NCBI GenBank assembly: GCA_000990005.1
Contig: LBPF01000004.1
Coordinates: forward strand, 1-59,299
Direction: 5' to 3'
DNA length: 59,299 bases
Source: Candidatus Woesebacteria bacterium GW2011_GWB1_33_38
Lineage (GTDB): Bacteria > Patescibacteriota > Microgenomatia > UBA8517
Shown here: positions 3,230-59,198 of the stretch, in pieces
How positions within the stretch are numbered: the stretch's first letter is position 1
Layout: every line of letters begins with the position of its first letter
Translations under genes and position numbers: made by a program
The notes under the pieces: model-generated
Database searches by the model: none
Seen by the model: the letters and a program-made list of their open reading frames with translations, nothing else
What the model was told of the DNA's origin: nothing

Positions 3230-3620
3230 TGGTGGAGATGGAGGGAATCGAACCCTCATCCGAAAAACTTATAAACAAAACCTTTACAAGCGTATTTAGT
3301 TTTTATAATTTCCTTTAAAAATTATCCAACTAACAGGAATTTTAAAGTGAGATTTATTTGTCTTTGTTACAGATCTTTAAATCATTAAAATCTGTAAAGC
3401 ATCTCGAATTGGTTTACACCCAGTCGGTCCGATCGAGAATCAGACTTCAGGACGCCGTTAAGCATCAATCGTTAAATATGCAAAATGCATATCACGATAT
3501 TGATTAACAGAAGCAAAATTTTGTTTTGCTTTTAGTTTTTGATATCTTTTGACAAGTGTTTATCAAACTTGGCTTGCAGTTTTGTAAAAGAGCTTCCCGT
3601 CGAAACCGGTCTTTTGCTTT
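3230..3620 (-). ncRNA. ssrA: tmRNA (SsrA); 3' end certain, 5' end approximate and atypical
   Basis: The reverse complement ends GAGGGTTCGATTCCCTCCATCTCCACCA (T-arm, acceptor, encoded CCA). GGTTTCGACGGG, the hallmark of the 5' tRNA-like domain, lies at 3596-3609. The gene is immediately downstream of smpB. Confidence 0.65.
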
Positions 3621-4013: not shown

Positions 4014-4640
4014 ATGATTCTTGATTTACTGTTCCCCAAATACTGTTTAGAATGCAAAAAGTTAGGTAAATATATATGTGATGGCTGTTATTGTAAGGTC
4101 AGACCTTGCAATATTATAGATAATAATTATTCAATTTTTAAGTACGAGGGAGTGATTAGAAAGGCAATAATTTCTTTAAAATATAAGTTTGCATTCGATT
4201 TAGTTGACGAGTTAGTTAGTTGCGTGTTACGAGTTTTAAAAATAAATTCTAAATTCTTAATTTTTACGGCATCGCCAGTTATTAATTCTAAATTAATTTT
4301 AGTTCCAATTCCACTTCATAAACATCGGGAAAACTGGAGAGGATTTAATCAAGCAGAAATAATTGGAGAAAAGTTAGCCAAGAAAATGAATTGGAAATAT
4401 ATTCCTGATTTATTAATTCGTACAAAAGAATCAAAACCTCAAGTTCAATTAAAAGGTCTTGACCGCAGAAAAAATTTATCAGGAGTTTTTGTTGTTAATA
4501 CTAATCACTTTATATCTAATAACTGTTCACTTGTTCTTTTTGATGATGTTTACACCACAGGTTCAACCATAAATGAGGCCAAGAAAGTACTACAAGAATC
4601 TGGTTTTAAAAATATCCAAAGTCTAACTATTGCGAGATAA
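4014..4640 (+). CDS. comF: ComF-family phosphoribosyltransferase
   Basis: N-terminal CxxC..CxxC cluster and PRTase motif VLFDDVYTTGSTINEA. Confidence 0.8.
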   Translation: MILDLLFPKYCLECKKLGKYICDGCYCKVRPCNIIDNNYSIFKYEGVIRKAIISLKYKFAFDLVDELVSCVLRVLKINSKFLIFTASPVINSKLILVPIPLHKHRENWRGFNQAEIIGEKLAKKMNWKYIPDLLIRTKESKPQVQLKGLDRRKNLSGVFVVNTNHFISNNCSLVLFDDVYTTGSTINEAKKVLQESGFKNIQSLTIAR

Positions 4641-4672
4641 TTGAAACAAAGTCTTTAGTGTACAAAACACAA

Positions 4673-5230
4673 TCACTGTACTATATTTATCGTATTTTCA
4701 GTCGCCTGAGTTCTTGTTTGTTTGGTCTGGTTAGCAAACCAATTATAGTAAGCATCTATGAAATCCAAGCAGAATATATCTATTTGTAATTGCAAGACTT
4801 TATAATTTTTGGTCTCCTGTAGATTAAAATGTCTAAAGTTATTTTTCTTTGGAGGCACAAATTCAAAGTTATCTAACTTTATACGTGCCTGTTGATGGCT
4901 AATACTAGTTGTTGCCTGGTGATAAAGACTACATCTTAGGGCGTAACAATCATTTCCAGAAAATTCTAGATTTGACATAGATATTAATTTCTGTCTCGTT
5001 TCTGTGTTCATTGACTTCAGCATATTTATCGGAGCACCAGTTTTTCTCCGATATTTTTTTCCAAGATATCGTTCGAATCATCTTATATAAAGCTTTCTGG
5101 ATGTTTTTCTATTTTTATCTTCCAAACTAGAACATATATCTGGAATAGCTAGACAAAGAAACATAGCTGCAAACCAGTTTTTATTTTTTAGACAGCTTTT
5201 AATTGATTGTATTATTAAATCTATATTCAT
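4673..5230 (-). pseudogene. hypothetical protein interrupted by an in-frame TGA (5078-5080)
   Basis: ORFs 5078..5230 (start MNIDLII) and 4673..5023 are in the same frame. They are separated only by one TGA and 18 sense codons. Confidence 0.4.
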
Positions 5231-5246
5231 ATAAAATAATTTGATT

Positions 5247-5338
5247 TGGCGGTGAGGGTGGGATTCGAACCCACGACAGCCAAAAATGACTGTATTAGTT
5301 TTCAAGACTAACCTGATCGACCACTCCAGCACCTCACC
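5247..5338 (-). tRNA. tRNA-Ser(UGA), CCA encoded
   Basis: Reverse complement reads GGTGAGG..anticodon loop CTTGAAA..long variable arm..GGGTTCGAATCCCAC CCTCACC G CCA. Confidence 0.85.
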
Positions 5339-5363
5339 GTTTTTATATAACTCTAGTAATTTG

Positions 5364-5449
5364 CGGAGGATACAGGGGTCGAACCTGTCCGACGCAATTA
5401 AGCGTCAAAGTTTAGCAAACTTTTCCCTGAACCGTTCGGGATATCCTCC
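5364..5449 (-). tRNA. tRNA-Ser(GCU)
   Basis: Reverse complement reads GGAGGAT..anticodon loop TTGCTAA..long variable arm..ACAGGTTCGACCCCTGT ATCCTCC G. Confidence 0.8.
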
Positions 5450-6438
5450 TTGTATCTCAATAATCTAAAGTTGCTTGATCCAACAATATTAAAGTAATCT
5501 ATTACTGAGGCTTTATTATACAGCCAAATGCGTTCACCTGCCACACTTGGATGCAAATTTAATTCATCTAGAGTTTTTGTTACAAAATTTAGTAAAGGTT
5601 TTGATCTATTAGCAAAACATGGGTTTAAATATGTATAACTTTTAGACTTGTATTTATGAGTACATCTTGATATGCAACCGTCTGTATCCATTAGCCCTCT
5701 TAGGCATGCGATTTTGTATTCAATTGAGCCCATTATCCACATAGGCACACTTACTTGTTGCTTTACCTTATCGCCCTTTTTAAGGCCAATTTTTAATAAA
5801 TAATTTATTAGATTAATTCCGCTATATCTTAAATTTGTAGCTTTACAATCTTTTCTTGGAGCTATTTTTGGTTTTTGTCCAAAAAGAGTTTTACCTAAAT
5901 TGGCAACATACTTTATATATTTCTTGTCAGCAACTGTATTTAGTGTCACTGTTGCTTGTTCTTTTGTAATTCCACCATCTCCTAACATGATTCCAACAAA
6001 TTCTGCCAGCCTTATTGATTTTTTTGGATACAAATAAGGCTTGGAACACCATGCGGCTAGACCTCTCTTTCTAAGAATTTGTAAAGCATTATGGCCACCT
6101 TTCCTTCTTCCTTCCGGAGTACTGAAATTTCCATAAATTTTATATCTTGCTTTTGCACCGATTCTACAAGTTTCGCTTCTTAAATTTTGCCAATTTATTT
6201 TTAATTGCTCTAAATTATTAGGTAAAATAATGTCATGTTTGTTGCATAGAATTTTTACAGCATTCTCTGTTATGTTATATTTTTCTCTTTTCCAGTCTCG
6301 AATCGTTCTAGGTGAAACATTTACCAGTCTTGAAAATTTTATGGAATCTAAATTAGATTTTTGAAGTGCACTTTCTAAAAATTTTCTTTGTTCTCCCTTC
6401 GGAAATTTAATTCTACTATCGCTATATTTAGATGGCAT
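5398..6438 (-). CDS. LAGLIDADG-type homing-endonuclease-like protein with N-terminal HTH
   Basis: Two LAGLIDADG-like motifs (LAEFVGIMLGDGGI, LRGLMDTDGCI). The last 52 nt run antisense into tRNA-Ser(GCU). Confidence 0.65.
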   Translation of the reverse strand: MPSKYSDSRIKFPKGEQRKFLESALQKSNLDSIKFSRLVNVSPRTIRDWKREKYNITENAVKILCNKHDIILPNNLEQLKINWQNLRSETCRIGAKARYKIYGNFSTPEGRRKGGHNALQILRKRGLAAWCSKPYLYPKKSIRLAEFVGIMLGDGGITKEQATVTLNTVADKKYIKYVANLGKTLFGQKPKIAPRKDCKATNLRYSGINLINYLLKIGLKKGDKVKQQVSVPMWIMGSIEYKIACLRGLMDTDGCISRCTHKYKSKSYTYLNPCFANRSKPLLNFVTKTLDELNLHPSVAGERIWLYNKASVIDYFNIVGSSNFRLLRYKEDIPNGSGKSLLNFDA

Positions 6439-6513
6439 ATTTAATACTAACTAAACCCGAAAGATAAGTCAATAGGTCATGCGAATCTATTAGTAATAAG
6501 GTATAATCTAAAC

Positions 6514-7035
6514 ATGGATCCTGCCAAAGAACAACAACAAGAAAATAGCTCTTTAAAACCTGAATTAGAAAAAGATCTTGTAACTTGGGTAGCTCCCGCA
6601 AGACCATTTAAAAGAAGAGATAAACAGTTTTATTTAACCACAATATCAATTGCTGGAATAGTTTGTTTGATTTTATTCTTAGCTGAGGGAGCTATGCCAG
6701 TAATTTTAATAGTCTCTTTAATTTTTCTCTATTATGTTATGAGTACTGTAGCTCCAGAGGATATTGAGTATAAAATTACAAATAAAGGAATTAAAGTTGG
6801 AGGTAGAACAACAAATTGGCAATTTTTAGGTAGGTTTTGGTTTGGAAAAAGGTATGATAGTGAACTTTTAATAGTGGAGACAGCGTTTATACCTAATAGA
6901 ATGGAGCTAGTCATAAAATCTGAAGTTAAAGAAGAAATAAAGGAAAATTTAAAAAAATATCTAATTGAAGAAGAAATTTCTCCATCAAAATTAGATAAAG
7001 CAATAGACTGGTTTAGTAAAAAATTACCCAATTAA
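6514..7035 (+). CDS. hypothetical membrane protein
   Basis: ORF with two adjacent TM helices. No recognisable motif. Confidence 0.45.
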   Translation: MDPAKEQQQENSSLKPELEKDLVTWVAPARPFKRRDKQFYLTTISIAGIVCLILFLAEGAMPVILIVSLIFLYYVMSTVAPEDIEYKITNKGIKVGGRTTNWQFLGRFWFGKRYDSELLIVETAFIPNRMELVIKSEVKEEIKENLKKYLIEEEISPSKLDKAIDWFSKKLPN

Positions 7036-7055
7036 AAGTTATAAAATAATATATT

Positions 7056-7127
7056 GCCCTCGTAGCTCAACGGATAGAGCACTGGTTTGCGGAATCAGAA
7101 ATATCAGTCCGATTCTGATCGAGGGCA
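7056..7127 (+). tRNA. tRNA-Arg(GCG)
   Basis: GCCCTCG acceptor, anticodon stem CTGGT/ATCAG, loop TTGCGGA. The T-loop TCCGATT is unusual. Confidence 0.75.
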
Positions 7128-7131
7128 CATT

Positions 7132-7213
7132 GGAGGATTGGTAGAACGGTAATACGCGGGTTTCGAAAACCCGTGGGAGTAATCCCAAGTAGGTTCGACT
7201 CCTACATCCTCCG
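7132..7213 (+). tRNA. tRNA-Ser(CGA)
   Basis: GGAGGAT acceptor, anticodon loop TTCGAAA, long variable arm, GTAGGTTCGACTCCTAC T-arm. Confidence 0.8.
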
Positions 7214-7240
7214 CTTTTCTGGTACAATACACGTAAAGTT

Positions 7241-7693
7241 ATGAAAAACAATAACGGTGAAATACTAATTGGTGGGGCAGTTATTTTTAAAGAAGGAAGA
7301 GGAAAAAATCATTTTTTACTTTCAAAAAATAATGAAGGTGAGTGGGAAATATTAAAGTCTACAGTTAGAAGGGGAGAGTCTTCAGTTAGGGCTGTAATTA
7401 GATTTACTTCAGAACAGGGAAATATGAATACTAGAGTTTTAGATGAAGTAGGTAGGGGAACTGGTGCAGGAACAGTTGGAAACAAAAGTGTAACTTTTAA
7501 ATATATTTATTACCTTATGTTGTATAAAACAGGTGCTGAAATAATGGGTATAGGAGAACACGCTTGGTTTGATTATGCTGGAAGCTTAAAGAAACTTAAA
7601 TTAAAAAGAGAAAAAGATATGTTAAAAACAGCAAATGGAATGATTAAAGAATGGGAAAAGAAAAGAAAATCCTCAAAAAGACCAAACTCCTGA
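7241..7693 (+). CDS. NUDIX-like protein (degenerate Nudix box)
   Basis: GGAVIF...GEWEILKSTVRRGESSVRAVIRFTSEQG loosely fits GX5EX7REUXEEXG. Confidence 0.35.
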   Translation: MKNNNGEILIGGAVIFKEGRGKNHFLLSKNNEGEWEILKSTVRRGESSVRAVIRFTSEQGNMNTRVLDEVGRGTGAGTVGNKSVTFKYIYYLMLYKTGAEIMGIGEHAWFDYAGSLKKLKLKREKDMLKTANGMIKEWEKKRKSSKRPNS

Positions 7694-7718
7694 TATAATT
7701 GCCTCAGTCTAATAAAAT

Positions 7719-7734
7719 ATGGAGGAGTCGGATA
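7719..7734 (+). repeat. 16-nt direct repeat: duplicated 5' end of tRNA-Ser(GGA)
   Basis: ATGGAGGAGTCGGATA occurs at 7719-7734 and again at 7782-7797, where it is the start of the intact tRNA. Confidence 0.9.
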
Positions 7735-7783
7735 AGTAAACTTGCAACCCAGTTGTAAGCATAGCTTGTCCTTACCCTCACAT

Positions 7784-7867
7784 GGAGGAGTCGGATAGTG
7801 GTTCATTCCACAGACTTGGAAAGTCTGCGGCTTAACAGCCTCGCGAGTTCGAATCTCGCCTCCTCCG
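7784..7867 (+). tRNA. tRNA-Ser(GGA)
   Basis: GGAGGAG acceptor, anticodon loop TTGGAAA, long variable arm, GCGAGTTCGAATCTCGC T-arm, CTCCTCC G. Confidence 0.85.
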
Positions 7868-9361
7868 CTTTGCAAATAATGAGCGTGTCGCAAAATATGG
7901 CGAGTTTTGCGCACGCTCGGAACAGGCCGTATTGTAGCCCAGTTTGTAATCTGTTTGGAGCGAATTACCTTCTAAAATGAAGTTCGAGCCGACACTTTTT
8001 GCAAAAGAGCGAAGCTCTTCTGCAACTACATTTTTTGCCGCGATTTTTCTAGCCTGAAAGGCTCGCAACATGAAGTTTTCGAAAGGTTCGAGCCAAAGTC
8101 CACCCTTTTCTTTTAGAACAGCGATTTTCTCTGCGATTTTTTGTTTTTCCTCAAAAATCTCATTCTTCTTTAGTTTATAAACTTCGGGGTCAATATCTCC
8201 TGAAATATAACCGTCGGTTAATCTACTAACTTTAAGGTCTTGTAATTTTATTTCGTTTTCAAAATTGTGAGATTTTTGAGAGACAAGTTTTGTCTCTAGC
8301 TTTTTATCTTCCTCAAACCACTTTTTCCAATCACTTTGCCAAGAAGAAGGCAAGGCAACTGCCGAAATTATCCTTTTAATCTCACTTTTGAGATTATCTT
8401 CAGAAATATACTTTTGACTGCACTTACCTAACTTTTTAGTACAACGATAGTAGGTATAGTCAGCACACCTATCAGTACCTTTGTAATATTTATGATGAAT
8501 TTCGGCAGTTATTGCAGCTCCACATTCCGCGCATCTGGCCAGTCCTGTAAAGGCAAACCTGTGTCCATCAGTTCTAGGTTTTTCTATCTTTTTGATTTCA
8601 GATTGAACAGAGTCAAACAATTCTTTGGGTATAAAACACTTATGCGTTCCTTTATACCACTCACCTTTATAGAAAAACTGACCCATATAGAATTTGTTAG
8701 TTAAAGTTCTTCTAATCCTTGTTAAGTCTAAAGGTTTGCCTTTACCTCCAAAAACTTTATTCGAAGCAAGGTATCTTGATATTTTCACAAAAGACTTTTC
8801 ATTTAAGAATAGGGTAAAACAGTTACTCACCAATTTAGATAGCTTTTTATCAATTACTATGTTGTGAGTAACTGGGTGATTTTTATACCCAAATGGAGCT
8901 TTTAGAGGCCAGATGCCCAAGCGCAATTTTTGCCTAATACCTCTTTTTACATTTTCACTTAAATTATCTACATAATATTTTCCTTGGGAAAAGGCGATTG
9001 AAAGCATGAATTTACCTTGTGGGGTATTATCAAACCAAAAAGTGGGGAATTTTAAATCAACTATTTTCCCAATATCTAAAAAGTAGATAATTTTGCCTCC
9101 GTCAACTGAATTTCTAGCAAGTCTATCGGCGTGCCATGACAAAATTGCGTTTGCCTTGCCTTCTTCAATGCTTTTAAGCATTGAATTAAACTTTTCTCTT
9201 CCAGGTTCTTTGGCAGTTTTTGACTCTGTAATAATTTCAGTTACAAAAAGGTTATTGCTCTTGGCAAATTCCTTTAGTTCTGCAACTTGTGACTCAATAG
9301 ACAAAACTTGCTTTGTGGCTTCGTCAGTTGACTTACGGCAGTAGATTATGTATTTGTCCAT
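7832..9361 (-). CDS. large serine recombinase (resolvase catalytic domain + recombinase domain + zinc ribbon)
   Basis: N-terminus YCRKSTDE..SIESQ carries the catalytic Ser region. CxxC...C cluster (ARCAECGAAITAE...YYRCTKK) and a coiled-coil tail. The ORF runs through IR1 into antisense tRNA-Ser(GGA). Confidence 0.85.
   Translation of the reverse strand: MDKYIIYCRKSTDEATKQVLSIESQVAELKEFAKSNNLFVTEIITESKTAKEPGREKFNSMLKSIEEGKANAILSWHADRLARNSVDGGKIIYFLDIGKIVDLKFPTFWFDNTPQGKFMLSIAFSQGKYYVDNLSENVKRGIRQKLRLGIWPLKAPFGYKNHPVTHNIVIDKKLSKLVSNCFTLFLNEKSFVKISRYLASNKVFGGKGKPLDLTRIRRTLTNKFYMGQFFYKGEWYKGTHKCFIPKELFDSVQSEIKKIEKPRTDGHRFAFTGLARCAECGAAITAEIHHKYYKGTDRCADYTYYRCTKKLGKCSQKYISEDNLKSEIKRIISAVALPSSWQSDWKKWFEEDKKLETKLVSQKSHNFENEIKLQDLKVSRLTDGYISGDIDPEVYKLKKNEIFEEKQKIAEKIAVLKEKGGLWLEPFENFMLRAFQARKIAAKNVVAEELRSFAKSVGSNFILEGNSLQTDYKLGYNTACSERAQNSPYFATRSLFAKRRRRDSNSRGC
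7865..7964. repeat. IR1 left copy (100 bp)
   Basis: Reverse complement of 9434..9533 with a single mismatch (7957). Contains an imperfect dyad, 7881-7895/7905-7918. Confidence 0.9.
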
Positions 9362-18519: not shown

Positions 18520-19185
18520 TCATTCATTCCTTCCTTTAAAGTAATTTGAACAAATTTCCGGGGCATTGGCTTTCATCTCAGGCCAATCAGTATTGCTCCA
18601 AATTTTTTCTAACAGGATTCGAGCTGATTGCGAAAAGTAATTCATTGGACACAGACGATCCTTTACTTTCTCTGGAATAATGTAATCAGAATATCCAAAT
18701 TGCCAATGAATCATGCGATATTTTGGGAAATCTACTATATCTTTAGGATGATTTGGAATTCCTACCCAATCACCAACTTTTAATTTGGAGCCTGATTTGA
18801 GTTCTGGGTTTACACTTTCCATTTCTGTATAGTCAACACCCCATTTTCCATTTCTCGTTGCCAAATCATATCTACCATTTTTGTCTGGAAAAATTCCAAC
18901 TACCACTGAGTCCATTGATGCGTAAATTTTAACACCATCTCCATCGTGCCATTGAAAATCAATCCCGGGATGGCCACCTTGTTTAGCGTTGTGGTTTATC
19001 GTTTCCCCCATAGGCATAATTTGGTTTGGAATTTTTCCATTTGTATCTATTGGCAACTCAAGTATTGGCTTTCCGTTTTCAGGCAGATTTGTATAAACAT
19101 TTTTATTGTTATAAAAGTGGAGGATAGCTACTACTGAAACAAGAATTACTAATATTAACAAAACCCATTTCAGATGTTTCAACAT
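18520..19185 (-). CDS. membrane-anchored M23/LytM-like peptidase (tentative)
   Basis: N-terminal TM helix and an HPGIDF (HxxxD-like) motif. The second His motif is unclear. Confidence 0.4.
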   Translation of the reverse strand: MLKHLKWVLLILVILVSVVAILHFYNNKNVYTNLPENGKPILELPIDTNGKIPNQIMPMGETINHNAKQGGHPGIDFQWHDGDGVKIYASMDSVVVGIFPDKNGRYDLATRNGKWGVDYTEMESVNPELKSGSKLKVGDWVGIPNHPKDIVDFPKYRMIHWQFGYSDYIIPEKVKDRLCPMNYFSQSARILLEKIWSNTDWPEMKANAPEICSNYFKGRNE

Positions 19186-19224
19186 AATTTAAGTATATAA
19201 TGGTTTTGACTGTGCCAATAACAA

Positions 19225-19626
19225 TTATTGTAAATTCTCAACAATTAATTTAATTTTGTCTCTCATTGTTCTGACAACATCAATTGTTTTCTTAATATCT
19301 GGAGGATCTTCGACTAAGGCGTATAAGACATTTTCTCTCATAATAATTGCCTCGGGGCATATCTTTTTGTTACAAAGTACAACTATTTTTTCTGCCACAT
19401 CTATCATTTCTGTAGTCAACTGATTAATCTTTTGGTCACCAATATTAATGCCAACCTCTTGCATTACTTGAATTACATCAGGGCGTGGGTGACCGTTATA
19501 TTTTTGAGAAGAATCAACTAAACCTGCACTTATTGAAGCTTTACTTCCACTTTTCTTGTTATAGAATCCCTCAGCCATTTGGCTACGACCAACATTCTCA
19601 TTGCAGATAAATAAATATTTATACAT
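19225..19626 (-). CDS. low-molecular-weight phosphatase / ArsC-type reductase family
   Basis: P-loop FICNENVGRSQMAEGF (CX5R-S). Confidence 0.7.
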   Translation of the reverse strand: MYKYLFICNENVGRSQMAEGFYNKKSGSKASISAGLVDSSQKYNGHPRPDVIQVMQEVGINIGDQKINQLTTEMIDVAEKIVVLCNKKICPEAIIMRENVLYALVEDPPDIKKTIDVVRTMRDKIKLIVENLQ

Positions 19627-19746
19627 AAGCAGATTTTATCAAATTTTTACCTTGATGTTATTTATGATAGACACAATATAAACTTGACATTCGTCGTGGT
19701 AAAAATGATGTTTGACAATAGTTGTATTACTTGTTATGATACTTGT

Positions 19747-20115
19747 ATGAAACAATATAAATTCGTGAAGTTTGATGGAATTTATTCTAGAGGTGATGCC
19801 AAGATCGGATTAAACAAATCTGGCTTAATAAGACTTTCGTCTGGTTTTTGTAGGATAAATAACATTCTACTTTTTAAATATGTAGTGCTTTATTATGATG
19901 ATCTAAATAAGGCAATTGCGTTCAAGTTTACGAACCAAAGAGAGGATGGTGTGTTAGCAGTAACAAAAGATACCACTGGAGCAACTGTTTCAGTAAAATC
20001 CTTCATGAATGCAAATAGATTGGAACTTCGAAGTTACTTTGGGAGATATGACTGGAAAAAACAAACAATAAACGGTGTTGGAGAAGTTTTTATAATAGAA
20101 TTGGGTAGAAAATGA
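19747..20115 (+). CDS. hypothetical protein (leaderless start)
   Basis: TTGACA(19712)-N17-TATGAT-6 nt-ATG(19747). ORF begins MKQYKFVKFDG. Confidence 0.45.
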   Translation: MKQYKFVKFDGIYSRGDAKIGLNKSGLIRLSSGFCRINNILLFKYVVLYYDDLNKAIAFKFTNQREDGVLAVTKDTTGATVSVKSFMNANRLELRSYFGRYDWKKQTINGVGEVFIIELGRK

Positions 20116-20368
20116 AAAGGTTTTTAGACAATTTGTTAAAGTTTCAAATTAAAGCTAGATTTAGTAATTTTTTTCGAGCTCATGTGTCCAATTCTAATAA
20201 CAAGGTAGAAAACTACTTTAATGGTCCAATATATTTTATTAATAATCAGGCAAAAAGATTAGTAGCTAAAAATTAATTGTTATTCACATTCCAAATTTAT
20301 ATATTACTGTAGAATATTGGCTTCATTGTTGGTATAATTAACCGTTCTTTAAAGATTGAATTTCTAAC

Positions 20369-20628
20369 TCCTCGGTAGCTCAACGGCAGAGCAGATTCCT
20401 GTCAAATGGCAGCACTTGATAGTAATATCAGGAGGCAAATCAGGCTAATTCGGGGAACGCCTAATTAGTTTTAGGTCAATCCCGAGCTAAGTCCCCGATT
20501 TAATTGGGGTAAATGTGTAGAGACTATATACCTGACACCAGTTTCTGGTGATGAGATAGTCCAGTCCTTTTGGTAACAAGAGGGGTTCTGTAAGAATAAG
20601 GTTGCACGTTCGAATCGTGCCCGAGGAG
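20369..20628 (+). tRNA. tRNA-Asn(GUU) interrupted by a group I intron
   Basis: The exons join to TCCTCGGTAGCTCAACGGCAGAGCAGATTCCTGT|TAAGAATAAGGTTGCACGTTCGAATCGTGCCCGAGGAG. U1-A72, G73 and the CUGUUAA loop match E. coli tRNA-Asn. Confidence 0.8.
20403..20590 (+). ncRNA. group I intron (IC3-like, ORF-less, 188 nt)
   Basis: P1 pairs CTGT with GCAG, giving U.G at the 5' splice site. The terminal G sits before the 3' exon. P7 is TCAGG/CCTGA. The core GTGTAGAGACTA is identical to the Azoarcus tRNA-Ile intron segment as I recall it. Confidence 0.75.
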
Positions 20629-20636
20629 CAAGGAAT

Positions 20637-21311
20637 TTAATTAAGTACACCAGCCATTAATCCTAATATCTCTCGCTGTGTTTTAGTTGACAAATAAAGT
20701 AATGTGAAAACGCCAAATTTATGTACTTGTTTTCTGATTTTTTTACTCCCAATTTTATTTTTTGCAATATAGCTCTTGTAAATTCTTTTTTCTGGTATCT
20801 TTGTTAAAACAGACCAATATTTTCTTGCCTTCTTTTCATCTAAATTATCATGAATCCAGATTTGACCAGCCATTTTATTAGGAGATATATCATAAAATTC
20901 TATTAGCCAATTAGTCATGAATTTGATTGTATTTGGATCAGAATTAGCAAAGCCAAACCGCTGATCATTTTTCCCACCATCTCCAATATAAAGTCCAATA
21001 CCTGCCATAAATCTATCCCTTTTTGTCAATCGTCCTATTTTTGATTTACCACTTTCAAATAACCGTTTTGTTCTTTCGATACGTTCTTTTTGTTGTTTTT
21101 TTGCTCCAATCATTCTACCTTTTGTTGCCCCGTTCAATTTGTTTTGAACAAGCCTATTGATTTGCTCAGGGGATAAAATAACATCTCTACACCACCTGCT
21201 TAAAGTATCCTTTGAAACCTTAACTCTTTTTTGTATTTCTCCGTAGGACAAGCCGTTAGATCTTAGTTTTTGAGCCAGCTTCTTCTCCTCTAATTTTCCG
21301 TAATAACCCAT
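20637..21311 (-). CDS. HTH + LAGLIDADG-like protein (free-standing homing-endonuclease-like)
   Basis: N-terminal resolvase-type HTH (LSYGEIQKRVKVSKDTLSRWCRDV). Single FMAGIGLYIGDGGK motif. Its stop codon begins 9 nt after the tRNA-Asn 3' end. Confidence 0.5.
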   Translation of the reverse strand: MGYYGKLEEKKLAQKLRSNGLSYGEIQKRVKVSKDTLSRWCRDVILSPEQINRLVQNKLNGATKGRMIGAKKQQKERIERTKRLFESGKSKIGRLTKRDRFMAGIGLYIGDGGKNDQRFGFANSDPNTIKFMTNWLIEFYDISPNKMAGQIWIHDNLDEKKARKYWSVLTKIPEKRIYKSYIAKNKIGSKKIRKQVHKFGVFTLLYLSTKTQREILGLMAGVLN

Positions 21312-21391
21312 ATATAAATATTAATATACCGGATAAGCAAAGTCAATAAGTATAGTAATATACTAAGTAACATGTATGTTATAATTTATTT

Positions 21392-21718
21392 ATGAAAACT
21401 AAAAAACTAAAATTGGAAAAAATAATCAAAAGAAATACAGTTTCTAGTGGAAGTGTATTTCGTGATTTTACTGCAAAGCAAAAAAAAATTGTTGATGCCG
21501 AGATTAAGTATTATGATGTTTTAGTAGGGTTAAAAAATCAAAGAAAGAGAATGGGTTTTTCGCAAAAACAATTAGCTGAAAGGGCCAGTTTGCCTAGAAC
21601 AACCATTACTAAGATTGAATCTGGAAGTTATAATCCTACAATTAACACTTTAATCTCTATCGCATACGCACTTAATAAGAAATTAGAACTAAAATTTGCC
21701 GAATTTGTATTCGGCTAG
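21392..21718 (+). CDS. XRE-family HTH transcriptional regulator
   Basis: MGFSQKQLAERASLPRTTITKIESG. Confidence 0.7.
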   Translation: MKTKKLKLEKIIKRNTVSSGSVFRDFTAKQKKIVDAEIKYYDVLVGLKNQRKRMGFSQKQLAERASLPRTTITKIESGSYNPTINTLISIAYALNKKLELKFAEFVFG

Positions 21719-21752
21719 TGCCTAAAAACTCCAAATAAGATATAATATTAAT

Positions 21753-22064
21753 ATGGATGGTAGAAGTCTTCGTCAGTTGCAAGAATTAATGGTAATTCAA
21801 TTAAAGAAGCGAGGATATTATCCAAAAGACGACAAAGAAGTTCTACTTCGCTTAGGAGAGGAAGTTGGAGAAGTTTTTGAAGCAGTTAGAGAAAATCAAA
21901 GTGAGGAAGATCTAAGCCATGAGATTGTAGATGTTTTTTGGAATTTACTTCGATTGTGCGAATTAAAAAATATAGATTTAGAAAAGGCATTTATAGAAAA
22001 ACTAGAGATAAACGAGTCAAGGCCCCTTGAAAAAGAAGTAACAGACATTTCTCAGAATTCGTAA
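21753..22064 (+). CDS. MazG-like nucleotide pyrophosphohydrolase
   Basis: LGEEVGEVFEAV...EIVDVFWNLLRLCE. Confidence 0.65.
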   Translation: MDGRSLRQLQELMVIQLKKRGYYPKDDKEVLLRLGEEVGEVFEAVRENQSEEDLSHEIVDVFWNLLRLCELKNIDLEKAFIEKLEINESRPLEKEVTDISQNS

Positions 22065-22090
22065 AGTGAAGAATATATTCAAATTAATTG

Positions 22091-22651
22091 CTAATACTTG
22101 GCAAAAAGATATATCTTTTTGTATACCGCACTAACAAAGTATCTACTTTTTATTAAGAGATTATTAAAACAGATTTCATAAATTAAAAACCCAAGGGGAA
22201 CAAAGAATATTGTACTTACTAATTGATACTTTAAAAAAGGTATACCGTTAACGTAGGAAGAAAGAAGCCCGTTTAGTGTTTTAGGATACATTCCCCATGA
22301 ATCAAGAGCCCAAACTCCAAAATTAGTCCAGATGAAGAAAAAGAGGTTTGATGAAATACCAACAAAGGTTCCTGAGAAAATATTATTAATCTTTAAATTT
22401 TTAAAGCGTTTTATAAATAAAACAGGGATTAAAAAACCAGACCAAGTAAATATAAAGATATTAGTATTGCCAATTAATAAATCAGAAATAATCAGAAGAA
22501 GTGAAGTAAAGAGTAGGGAGTATTTAGGATTTAGATAAAAAGCGCTTAAAACCATGGCTAAAGTTACAAGTTCAAAGTTTGGACCTAAATCAAAAGCAGT
22601 TCTCTCTAAAAAAGCCAGAAAGAATATGAAATAAACGAAGTAGTTTTTCAT
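22091..22651 (-). CDS. polytopic membrane protein (ECF S-component-like)
   Basis: Five to six TM helices. Translationally coupled to the DUF4430-like gene. Confidence 0.4.
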   Translation of the reverse strand: MKNYFVYFIFFLAFLERTAFDLGPNFELVTLAMVLSAFYLNPKYSLLFTSLLLIISDLLIGNTNIFIFTWSGFLIPVLFIKRFKNLKINNIFSGTFVGISSNLFFFIWTNFGVWALDSWGMYPKTLNGLLSSYVNGIPFLKYQLVSTIFFVPLGFLIYEICFNNLLIKSRYFVSAVYKKIYLFAKY

Positions 22652-23064
22652 TAGTATTTTGGAGTTTCATATTTCCACAACACAGTATCGCTTTCCTTTA
22701 ATGAGTAAAGATCAGCTGCTTTGTCTCCAGAAACACCGTTTACATAATAAATCCAAGATTTTTTGGCTCCAGATTCAAGATCTCCTATTTTTTTAACAAA
22801 TACACCAAAGTCATATTGTTGTGTTTCTAGGTATATGCCTTGTTTTTCTGTTTCAGATTTTAATATTGAAAAGGCAGTAGCATTTTCTTTTGTATTAATT
22901 TCATATGAATTTGCGTTTCCATTCCCATAATCTAAAGTAAGCATAGTTTTGAACTGCTGAACCTGTGGTTTTGGTGTTTGGATGTTTTGCTTTGTGCTAA
23001 AGCCGTAGACTGTAGACAACAAGCCAATGGCAATTATTACAAATAGATACCAGTATTTTTTCAT
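22651..23064 (-). CDS. DUF4430-like secreted protein
   Basis: Signal peptide, then WIYYVNG..ADLYSLKESDTVLWKYE C-terminus. Confidence 0.5.
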   Translation of the reverse strand: MKKYWYLFVIIAIGLLSTVYGFSTKQNIQTPKPQVQQFKTMLTLDYGNGNANSYEINTKENATAFSILKSETEKQGIYLETQQYDFGVFVKKIGDLESGAKKSWIYYVNGVSGDKAADLYSLKESDTVLWKYETPKY

Positions 23065-58029: not shown

Positions 58030-58100
58030 GGGTGTGTCGTTCATCGGTAGGACGGTACTCTTATAAAGTATCAAGGATGGTTCGACTCCATCCACACCCA
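58030..58100 (+). tRNA. tRNA-Ile(UAU)
   Basis: GGGTGTG acceptor, D stem GTTC/GGAC, anticodon stem GTACT/AGTAT, loop CTTATAA, T-arm GATGGTTCGACTCCATC. Confidence 0.75.
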
Positions 58101-59198
58101 CAGAAATGGATTTTCCGGCGAGTCGGGAATGGCGCTCGCCGCGCCCGCCCCCGTGGCGAGCGCTGCAAAGCCCAGTTTATATACGCAAAAAAGCCGCCGA
58201 TTAGAAACAAGGTAGTCCGAGCCGACTTTTTTGGCGAAGAATGATAATTCTTCGCCATTATGTTTCGCGCGCGCGATTTTGGCCGCATCAGCGGCCACTT
58301 CTACAAATTCCCTCATTAGTCCGAGCCATTCACTTCCGTTTTTGGAAACACTTGCCATTTTCTCCTTCAATCTGATTTTTAGTTCCATTAATTCGTTTTT
58401 CTTTTGTTGATAGACTTGGGGATCAACTATCTGGTCGAGATAGCCTTCAAGTAACCGATCAAGTTTTTTGTCTATTTCTTGAACTTCGGAAGAAAATTTT
58501 GTAACTTGATTTTCACTATTTGTTTTTTCTTCCGTTTCCTCTTTATCAAGTCTTTCTATCCACAGTTTAGTCCACGAAGTGGGCAGGCTGGCTTTTTCAA
58601 CAATTGCTCGCAATTGTTGCTCTAAAAGTTCTTCCCGCAGATAATTTTGTGAACAATCGGTTTTCTTTTTGGTACAGCGATAGTAGATGTAATCCACATT
58701 TCCCCTCGTTGTTGGATAGCATTTGTGTTTGACTTCGGCGGTGATGGCACAGCCACATTTAGCGCACTTGGCCAATCCCAGAAAAGCAAAGTTGTGCTTT
58801 TTGTTTTTAGGATGTTCTCTTGCCTCGAGAATTTTCTGAATTTTTCCAAACAACTCTGGGGGAATAAACAGTTTATGAGTCCCTTCGTAGGTTTCACCTC
58901 CGAAGTTGATTATGCCAACGTAAAACTTGTTGCTTATAATCCTCTTTACCGTATCAAGGTGAAGCATTTTACCGTTGTATCTGGTAATGCCAAACTTTTG
59001 AAAAAATCGAGAAATGTTAGCAATAGAGCTTTCGCCTTCGGCGAAAAGCTCAAATGCTTTTTTGACGATTTTTGATTTTACCGGATCAATTTCGATTGTT
59101 CGTAATCTCGGCTCGTTGAAATATCCGTACGGCGCTTTATTAGGTAAAATTCCTTTTCGCAGTTTTTGCCGATTGCCTCGTTTTACATTTTCGGACAA
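58071..59198 (-). pseudogene. 5'-truncated large serine recombinase (lacks catalytic domain)
   Basis: Homologous to residues ~134-end of 7832..9361 (LSENVKRGNRQKL..., CAKCGCAITAE, YYRCTKK). An in-frame TAA lies just upstream of the homology. The 3' end runs antisense into tRNA-Ile. Confidence 0.7.

Follow-up and report, generated by a model that had tools for sequence, protein, structure and literature searches.

Within the window, the whole 59,299-nucleotide stretch of DNA analysed here, positions 20369-20628 of the + strand are read as a tRNA-Asn(GUU) gene of Patescibacteria (Woesebacteria-like) with a group I intron of 188 nt inserted between U35 and U36. The intron is assigned to the IC3 (Azoarcus-like) type and lacks an open reading frame (ORF); this reading is given a probability of about 0.88. 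It is supported by a covariance-model match, by the tRNA predicted for the spliced product, by intronless orthologues and by covariation across 54 homologues. Judged from its sequence, the intron is a real, intact ORF-less IC3-type ribozyme, most likely functional and self-splicing. The gene consists of TCCTCGGTAGCTCAACGGCAGAGCAGATTCCTGT, 188 nt and TAAGAATAAGGTTGCACGTTCGAATCGTGCCCGAGGAG, and its parts are arranged as follows.

20330-20338, + strand: TGGTATAAT, a putative promoter element of the extended -10 kind, lying 31 nt before the tRNA and proposed from reading the sequence
20369-20402, + strand: 5' exon of tRNA-Asn(GUU), nt 1-35, ending in C32 U33 G34 U35 (3' end ...GATTCCTGT), from ARAGORN on the joined exons
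20403-20590, + strand: group I intron, 188 nt, IC3-type, no ORF, running from CAAATGGCAG to GGGGTTCTG, from Rfam RF00028, covariation, and RNAalifold and MFE folds
20591-20628, + strand: 3' exon of tRNA-Asn, from U36 (start TAAGAATAAGGTT) to the discriminator G73 at 20628, from ARAGORN on the joined exons

The host gene

In default mode, ARAGORN reports six tRNAs in the 59-kb window, none of them at 20369-20628 and none elsewhere a tRNA-Asn, so that genomes of this kind appear devoid of tRNA-Asn. When 20403-20590 is deleted, the program returns a 73-base tRNA-Asn(gtt) with a U1-A72 pair, the loop CTGTTAA and a 5-nt variable loop. The top of the anticodon stem carries a G27.A43 mismatch that is common to all intronless relatives. 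CCA is not encoded at the 3' end, where CAA comes next. E. coli genomes searched by BLAST with the spliced tRNA yielded no hit at the sensitivity used, and a direct alignment to the annotated E. coli asnT was used instead: the two genes have UCCUC.G...C.GAGGA-G, CUGUUAA and G73 in common, and the acceptor stems agree in six of seven pairs. This alignment bears out an earlier reading, made from the sequence alone, in which U1-A72, G73 and CUGUUAA had been likened to E. coli tRNA-Asn. The cloverleaf with its GUU anticodon, G73 and the likeness to known tRNA-Asn thus identify the host. The putative -10 element upstream was not called by a consensus promoter scan because the -35 is weak.

Intronless relatives and the splice junction

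One genome per species was scanned with the tRNA-Asn 5' half, with degenerate D-loop positions, which yielded 23 loci. The DNA relatives are without exception Patescibacteria/Microgenomates MAGs, mainly of Candidatus Woesebacteria. Thirteen of the loci are intronless, the gene running uninterrupted through ...GATTCCTGT TAAGAATAAGG... (CTGT/TAAGAAT, the slash marking the junction); in nine, 178-221 nt of inserted sequence separate CTGT from TAAGAATAAGG; and one is a tRNA-Asp gene. The intronless gene at locus L023 (Woesebacteria GW2011_GWB1_33_22; 60.2 bits on RF00005) has a 5' half identical to that of the window and a 3' half that differs by 1 nt, and the window 5' exon also matches 12 other intronless tRNA-Asn genes. 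The window intron begins with C, ends with G and is preceded by an exon U, which gives the mature junction CTGT/TAAG. Since no other pair of boundaries yields the intronless sequence, the 13 intronless genes fix both splice sites uniquely. The sequence-only reading, which had called a tRNA-Asn(GUU) with a 188-nt intron between positions 35 and 36, was therefore correct to the base, as judged by ARAGORN, RF00028 and the intronless relatives.

These relatives also decide against a different host. With introns allowed (-i), ARAGORN returns a tRNA-Gln(CUG) interrupted at 31/32 by an intron of 186 nt, and bacterial tRNA-Gln likewise has U1-A72 and G73. However, in such a gene the 5' splice site would follow a C, the anticodon stem would close with a C-A mismatch and position 37 would be a pyrimidine, and the reading ignores both the U.G pair of P1 and the P9.0 helix described below. 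The acceptor stem is moreover that of asnT in all pairs but one, and in the intronless orthologues the sequence across precisely the Asn junction is CTGTTAAGAAT. The intronless alleles thus exclude tRNA-Gln(CUG), leaving it a negligible probability.

A pair of genomes with and without the intron at the same locus was looked for, using the L023 flanks and the relatives of a neighbouring protein, and none was obtained. The L023 flanks do not align with the window, and a scan with the neighbouring 224-aa protein gave relatives at 46-62% identity only, among which only L153 (on the same contig as L070) keeps the adjoining tRNA, with the intron present. Some genomes with an intronless tRNA-Asn bear the intron in tRNA-Asp, for example CP011214.1 (L008 versus L051) and the genome of L023 (L104).

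Identity and architecture of the intron

Rfam RF00028 (Intron_gpI) matches 20391-20583 across the full model (positions 1-253) with an E-value of 8.5e-18 and 76.8 bits, the gathering score being 50. It is the sole Intron_gpI match within the window, and relatives of the window intron score 82-89 bits on the same model. The earlier reading had named this search among its checks and the lack of a significant covariance-model hit among the grounds for dropping the claim; as the match is significant, that objection falls away. The intron has P2 without P2.1, a simple P5 (no P5abc), no P7.1/7.2, GNRA loops on P2 and P9, and core strings of the IC3 type. These are the features of subgroup IC3, a placement made from the helix map and from alignment to Azoarcus and other IC3 rows of the Williams seed (Williams, 2020). 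All 188 nt are occupied by ribozyme helices, which leaves no room for an ORF; no homing endonuclease gene is present, and the element is thus not a homing-endonuclease intron. If it moves at all, the routes left to it would be reverse splicing, recombination and the action of an endonuclease provided in trans. The helices of the model, all on the + strand, are listed below with the evidence from the 54-intron alignment.

20399-20403/20408-20412: P1, exon C32-U35 and intron C1 paired with the guide GGCAG, with the 5' splice site at the U35.G wobble (20402.20409)
20415-20421/20426-20432: P2, 7-bp hairpin with GUAA tetraloop L2 at 20422-20425; double compensatory changes in 7/7 pairs
20440-20444/20531-20535: P3, UCAGG/CCUGA; 100% paired, double changes in 3/5 pairs, at the P3 position of the Rfam alignment
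20450-20455/20480-20485: P4, enclosing P5; 99.4% paired, nearly invariant
20459-20464/20471-20476: P5; 5/6 pairs covary
20486-20487/20515-20516: P6, GC/GU; invariant
20493-20498/20504-20509: P6a hairpin; every stem pair covaries
20520 and 20522-20526/20557-20562: P7, G-(A20521 bulge)-GACUA/UAGUCC, predicted pseudoknot, by homology to the Rfam and Williams alignments
20536-20541/20545-20550: P8, hairpin CACCAG-UUU-CUGGUG; double changes in 6/6 pairs, lying between P3' and P7' as P8 must
20563-20564/20588-20589: P9.0, AG/CU, enclosing P9; second pair GC in 23, AU in 16 and CG in 7
20565-20572/20577-20584: P9, TCCTTTTG-GTAA-CAAGAGGG, with GUAA tetraloop L9 at 20573-20576; 7/8 pairs covary
20590: omega G, last intron nucleotide, at the 3' splice site; G in 54/54

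P1 comprises only four exon pairs and one intron pair. Exon CUGU pairs with guide GCAG, the U35.G wobble included, in 54/54 sequences, a support that comes from conservation; the four exon pairs are invariant, and the C1-G extension covaries. The terminal G, next to the covarying P9.0, is equally invariant, a G having been required when intron ends were picked and the junction being fixed independently by the intronless alleles. Both P1, with its U.G pair at the splice site, and the terminal G had been recognised from the sequence alone. Two other helices had been misassigned in that reading: TCAGG/CCTGA, taken for P7, is P3, the real P7 being formed by G20520 and GACTA (20522-26) with TAGTCC (20557-62), and CACCAG-TTT-CTGGTG, taken for P9, is P8 (20536-50), the real P9 lying at 20565-84. 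By homology, the G20522-C20561 pair occupies the position of the guanosine-binding pair and may play that role.

Covariation and folding

A second scan, with the intron core pattern GTAGAGACTATANNCC...GATAGTCC, gave at least 119 loci. Fifty-four of these introns, together with 6 and 4 flanking exon nucleotides, were aligned (MAFFT) and pairs were counted on the P1-P9 model. Standard pairs fill 91.8% of 3101 cells, a share that drops to 32-47% once the 3' partners are displaced by 1-3 columns. Changes on both sides occur in 36 of 59 pairs (539 cells), and each of 500 shuffles falls short on all five measures. Helices P2, P3, P5, P6a, P8, P9 and P9.0 covary. The pairs of the P3/P7 pseudoknot are present in all 54 introns, P3 covarying and P7 never varying, with the P7 strands fixed by the search pattern. 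Because the exon pairs of P1 and helices P4, P6 and P7 never vary in the sample, they carry no covariation evidence, an invariance that stems partly from the scan pattern having fixed the P7 strands.

Run blind on the same alignment, RNAalifold recovers P1, P2, P3, P4, part of P5, P6a, P8 and P9; the P7 pseudoknot is, as expected, something it cannot draw. Folded by itself, the window intron adopts the same helices (z = -3.39 versus shuffles), and it agrees with the family model pair for pair. To assess P10, the stretch 5' of the guide G was compared with the 3' exon for complementarity that depends on the host. Asp hosts show it clearly (GUG versus CAC in 10/16, mean 2.5 bp); in Asn hosts it is weak (mean 1.1-1.5 contiguous pairs; 2 in the window), and P10 is thus not used as evidence for the window intron.

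Relation to known introns

Four classical classes of bacterial tRNA intron are recognised: Leu, Arg, fMet and Ile2. According to the preprint by Williams (2020; bioRxiv 10.1101/2020.01.27.920355), a screen of ~80,000 genomes extended the split-tRNA classes to 21, and split tRNA genes number 0.49 per genome in metagenomic assemblies from unnamed phyla. Its seed alignment has rows named Pam37.Asn.4Ug and Wba81.Asp.4Ug, where 4Ug gives the insertion site (following nucleotide 4 of the loop), the -1 nucleotide (U) and the omega nucleotide (G). The insertion point (U35/U36), the U -1 and the G omega of these classes are those of the window intron, and its Asn host corresponds to Asn.4Ug; split tRNA-Asn was therefore already on record. 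The Wba81.Asp.4Ug row is base-for-base identical to the tRNA-Asp intron at L051 (Woesebacteria CP011214.1), to which the window intron is 73% identical, and the representative Asn.4Ug row, Pam37, is 273 nt long, has extra helices and is ~65% identical to the window intron. In that seed, the short form represented by the window intron, here type A, has a tRNA-Asp host only, unlike the tRNA-Asn of the window.

The tRNA-Ile(CAU) intron of Azoarcus sp. BH72 (IC3, 205 nt) is likewise compact, ORF-less and inserted in a tRNA anticodon loop. The two introns share the helix set P1-P9, without P2.1 or P5abc. In both, P2 and P9 are capped by GNRA loops, and AAUUCGG.GAA, GUGUAGAGACUA and AUAGUCC recur in the core. 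The claim of an Azoarcus-like core made in the sequence-only reading holds, as GUGUAGAGACUA recurs in the Azoarcus-type Ile2 intron (row Aol6.Ile2.5Ug). However, there are differences. The Azoarcus host is Ile2, with the site after position 36; overall identity is 57%, and the window intron is 17 nt shorter. Loops L2 and L9 are GUAA in the window intron and GAAA in Azoarcus; P8 is a plain 6-bp hairpin that lacks the CCUAAG...UAUGG receptor motif of Azoarcus; and J7/3 and P6 also differ. The introns of cyanobacterial and plastid tRNA-Leu(UAA) and of cyanobacterial tRNA-fMet are self-splicing and, like the window intron, of the IC3 type, located in anticodon loops and sporadic among relatives, but they occupy other hosts, sites (after U34 in tRNA-Leu, after loop position 2 in tRNA-fMet) and another phylum, are longer, and in some cases carry homing endonuclease genes.

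A second intron lineage, type B, is found in other Patescibacteria at the same CTGT/TAAG site of tRNA-Asn (L001-L003). These introns are 199-218 nt long, have a GCAG guide and score 56.7-60.9 bits with Rfam, above gathering, but their core differs (GAGAAUUGCGUGAAG..., GGUUCAGAAACUAUG..., AAGAUAUAGUUCC) and can be aligned to type A only in the universal core. An example lies at L003:6376-6593, in Woesebacteria RIFCSPLOWO2_01_FULL_39_23.

A tRNA-Asn intron was not found in a 2014 review of bacterial group I introns or in a 2025 group I intron database paper, and so far the impression of rarity in the earlier reading can be understood. Searches pairing group I introns with tRNA-Asn returned nothing relevant, and among the titles listed for Patescibacteria or the Candidate Phyla Radiation there was none on tRNA introns. 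A cyanobacterial paper applies the term 'group I intron' in a loose sense to short introns predicted in genes for Arg, Gly and Lys, with Asn not among them.

Distribution and possible host switching

For 124 core matches, every upstream T was joined to every downstream G and ARAGORN was run on the products, U -1 and G omega being thereby imposed. This core scan of species-representative genomes gave at least 93 tRNA-Asn(GUU) and at least 16 tRNA-Asp(GUC) genes split after U35. Two more tRNA-Asp(GUC) genes, with the same site and 79 nt, stand outside the 16 only through a 78-nt cut-off. Among the matches listed, three fall outside these two groups, nearly all hosts are Patescibacteria, and intron lengths are 174-289 nt (median 197). 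Patescibacteria are known for intron-rich rRNA genes, and split tRNA-Asn is routine in the group. The expectation that an Asn host with insertion at 35/36 would be uncommon fails, as it was drawn from the four classical classes alone; the at least 93 tRNA-Asn genes are in different species, and Asn.4Ug was already in the seed of Williams (2020).

The same breadth bears on whether the window gene is alive. It might be a decaying pseudogene whose intron no longer splices, with tRNA-Asn supplied from another copy, and the consensus scan did call no strong promoter or terminator. However, the core elements are all intact and fit the family model, the exons are virtually identical to those of the functional-looking intronless gene at L023, and the arrangement persists, with compensatory changes, in over 100 species. 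A dead gene is hard to reconcile with one intron family occupying one site in so many tRNA-Asn and tRNA-Asp genes of different species, and decay is accordingly judged most improbable. Patescibacteria genomes are small, and their tRNAs are usually single-copy.

In a rough neighbour-joining tree without bootstrap, 15 of the 16 Asp-hosted introns form one clade and one is a stray among the Asn-hosted introns, a pattern suggestive of at least two host switches. The CUGU that begins both the Asn and Asp loops is the target of the guide, which would fit reverse splicing or recombination between the genes.

Further observations concern loci outside the two main hosts. A type-A core lies outside tRNA-Asn and tRNA-Asp at L046, L075 and L089; one of these may sit in tRNA-Met(CAU) and one, from a Clostridia MAG, in tRNA-Arg(UCU) or tRNA-Ile(UAU). 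Many TPA MAGs titled 'uncultured Gammaproteobacteria' or 'Pseudomonadales' (e.g. L001, L002, L005, L009) bear tRNA-Asn genes and introns typical of Patescibacteria, so that their labels appear unreliable.

Viral contigs scanned with the core pattern gave 11 matches, none in tRNA-Asn or tRNA-Asp. One of them, L164 (IMGVR_UViG_3300012983_001723, a 62.9-kb viral contig; - strand, about 4540-6240, intron core at 5384-5440), has a cluster of ~15 tRNA genes, including an apparent tRNA-Leu(UAG) split at the classical U34/A35 site by a related intron of ~850 nt (5' half GCGTCTG...TCAGACTT, 3' half AGGATCTGG...CCCACCAGACGCA). According to the 2014 review, the phage group I introns then known were all in protein-coding genes. 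In L155 and L163 (IMG/VR, 123.5 and 105 kb), a frame resembling an HNH-type endonuclease (..CPNCHSQTDNF..) lies inside the intron upstream of the core, and a T-arm-like 3' exon (GTACGGGTTCGAATCCCGTTCGAGCTA) follows the core; these may represent an endonuclease-bearing tRNA intron in large phages. The related cores of L156-L162 and L165 (IMG/VR) have an extra set of 3' helices and a recurring 'cagaaatga', in an apparent protein-coding context rather than in tRNA genes.

Genomic surroundings

The window, with a GC content of ~33%, is bacterial chromosome and not phage, given its DnaG primase, class A penicillin-binding protein and tmRNA. Phage records searched by BLAST with 19000-23000 yielded no hit. 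The tmRNA (3230-3611, - strand, 121 bits) is of the standard one-piece kind, its first six acceptor pairs not being aligned by the model, and four tRNA-Ser isoacceptors and tRNA-Arg(GCG) cluster near it (5247-7868). A tRNA-Ile with anticodon UAU (58030-58101, + strand) represents the less common bacterial solution for AUA; the tRNAscan-SE 2.0 paper reports tRNA-Ile(UAU) replacing tRNA-Ile2(CAU) in only 17 bacterial genomes.

Proposed splicing mechanism

Splicing is proposed from the conservation of the intron and the established chemistry of the group I family, which the following steps adopt. The pre-tRNA would be made as a single RNA, in which the intron folds into its P3-P9 core while the guide GGCAG and exon C32-U35 form P1 with the U35.G wobble. 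Free guanosine held in P7 would attack the bond after U35; the terminal G20590, placed by P9.0, would then take the same P7 site, and the 3'-OH of U35 would attack after G20590, joining U35 to U36 and restoring the loop CUGUUAA. Only the spliced RNA would function as tRNA-Asn. Exon alignment probably depends on an intact anticodon stem together with P9.0, as in the Anabaena tRNA-Leu intron, which reportedly needs exon pairing in the anticodon stem.

A real intron might not act as an autonomous ribozyme in the cell, but need a protein cofactor or chaperone at physiological Mg2+, for example a tRNA-binding protein or an aminoacyl-tRNA synthetase, with the anticodon stem perhaps required as a scaffold. 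The short P1 (4 exon pairs), a P10 of ~1-2 pairs in Asn hosts and the minimal periphery are consistent with such a need, as are a length 17 nt below the 205-nt Azoarcus intron, the lack of the 11-nt tetraloop receptor found in Azoarcus P8, and the Anabaena requirement just named. On the other hand, every core helix, the GNRA loops L2 and L9, and P9.0 are present and conserved, near-related IC3 introns self-splice efficiently in vitro, and no cofactor candidate is linked to the gene, Pfam identifying among the neighbours only a phosphatase, an HTH protein and a MazG protein. Dependence on a cofactor is therefore considered improbable, and an intact self-splicing ribozyme is preferred.

The element is best regarded as a long-resident, largely neutral selfish ribozyme whose target, CUGU, is common to tRNA-Asn and tRNA-Asp, and its moves between the two would be rare. 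An improbable further idea is that these reduced cells control their tRNA-Asn and tRNA-Asp supply through GTP-dependent splicing.

Significance

The finding leaves current understanding unchanged. It contributes one more well-supported case to the tRNA introns of Patescibacteria, which are catalogued but have received little study. Its practical value lies in annotation, as the gene is missed by standard tRNA finders and recognition of the intron mends this. The residual interest is in the small size (188 nt, with a family minimum of 174 versus 205 in Azoarcus), the plain periphery of GUAA loops and C-G helices, and the target shared by Asn and Asp hosts. The shared position in particular offers circumstantial material on how ORF-less group I introns reach new sites.

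A bolder reading may be entertained, with the odds clearly against it: of all natural group I ribozymes that self-splice, type A introns (mostly 174-237 nt) may be the smallest, and their U35/N36 position in tRNA-Asn and tRNA-Asp may record rare jumps at the RNA level. They would then manage with a 4-bp exon P1 and almost no P10, GUAA loops on plain C-G helices would replace the 11-nt receptors, and reverse splicing would be the likely route of jumps between CUGU-bearing tRNAs. Shorter than the Azoarcus ribozyme and available in more than 100 natural variants that covary clearly, the type A family could serve studies of folding and engineering as a minimal ribozyme.
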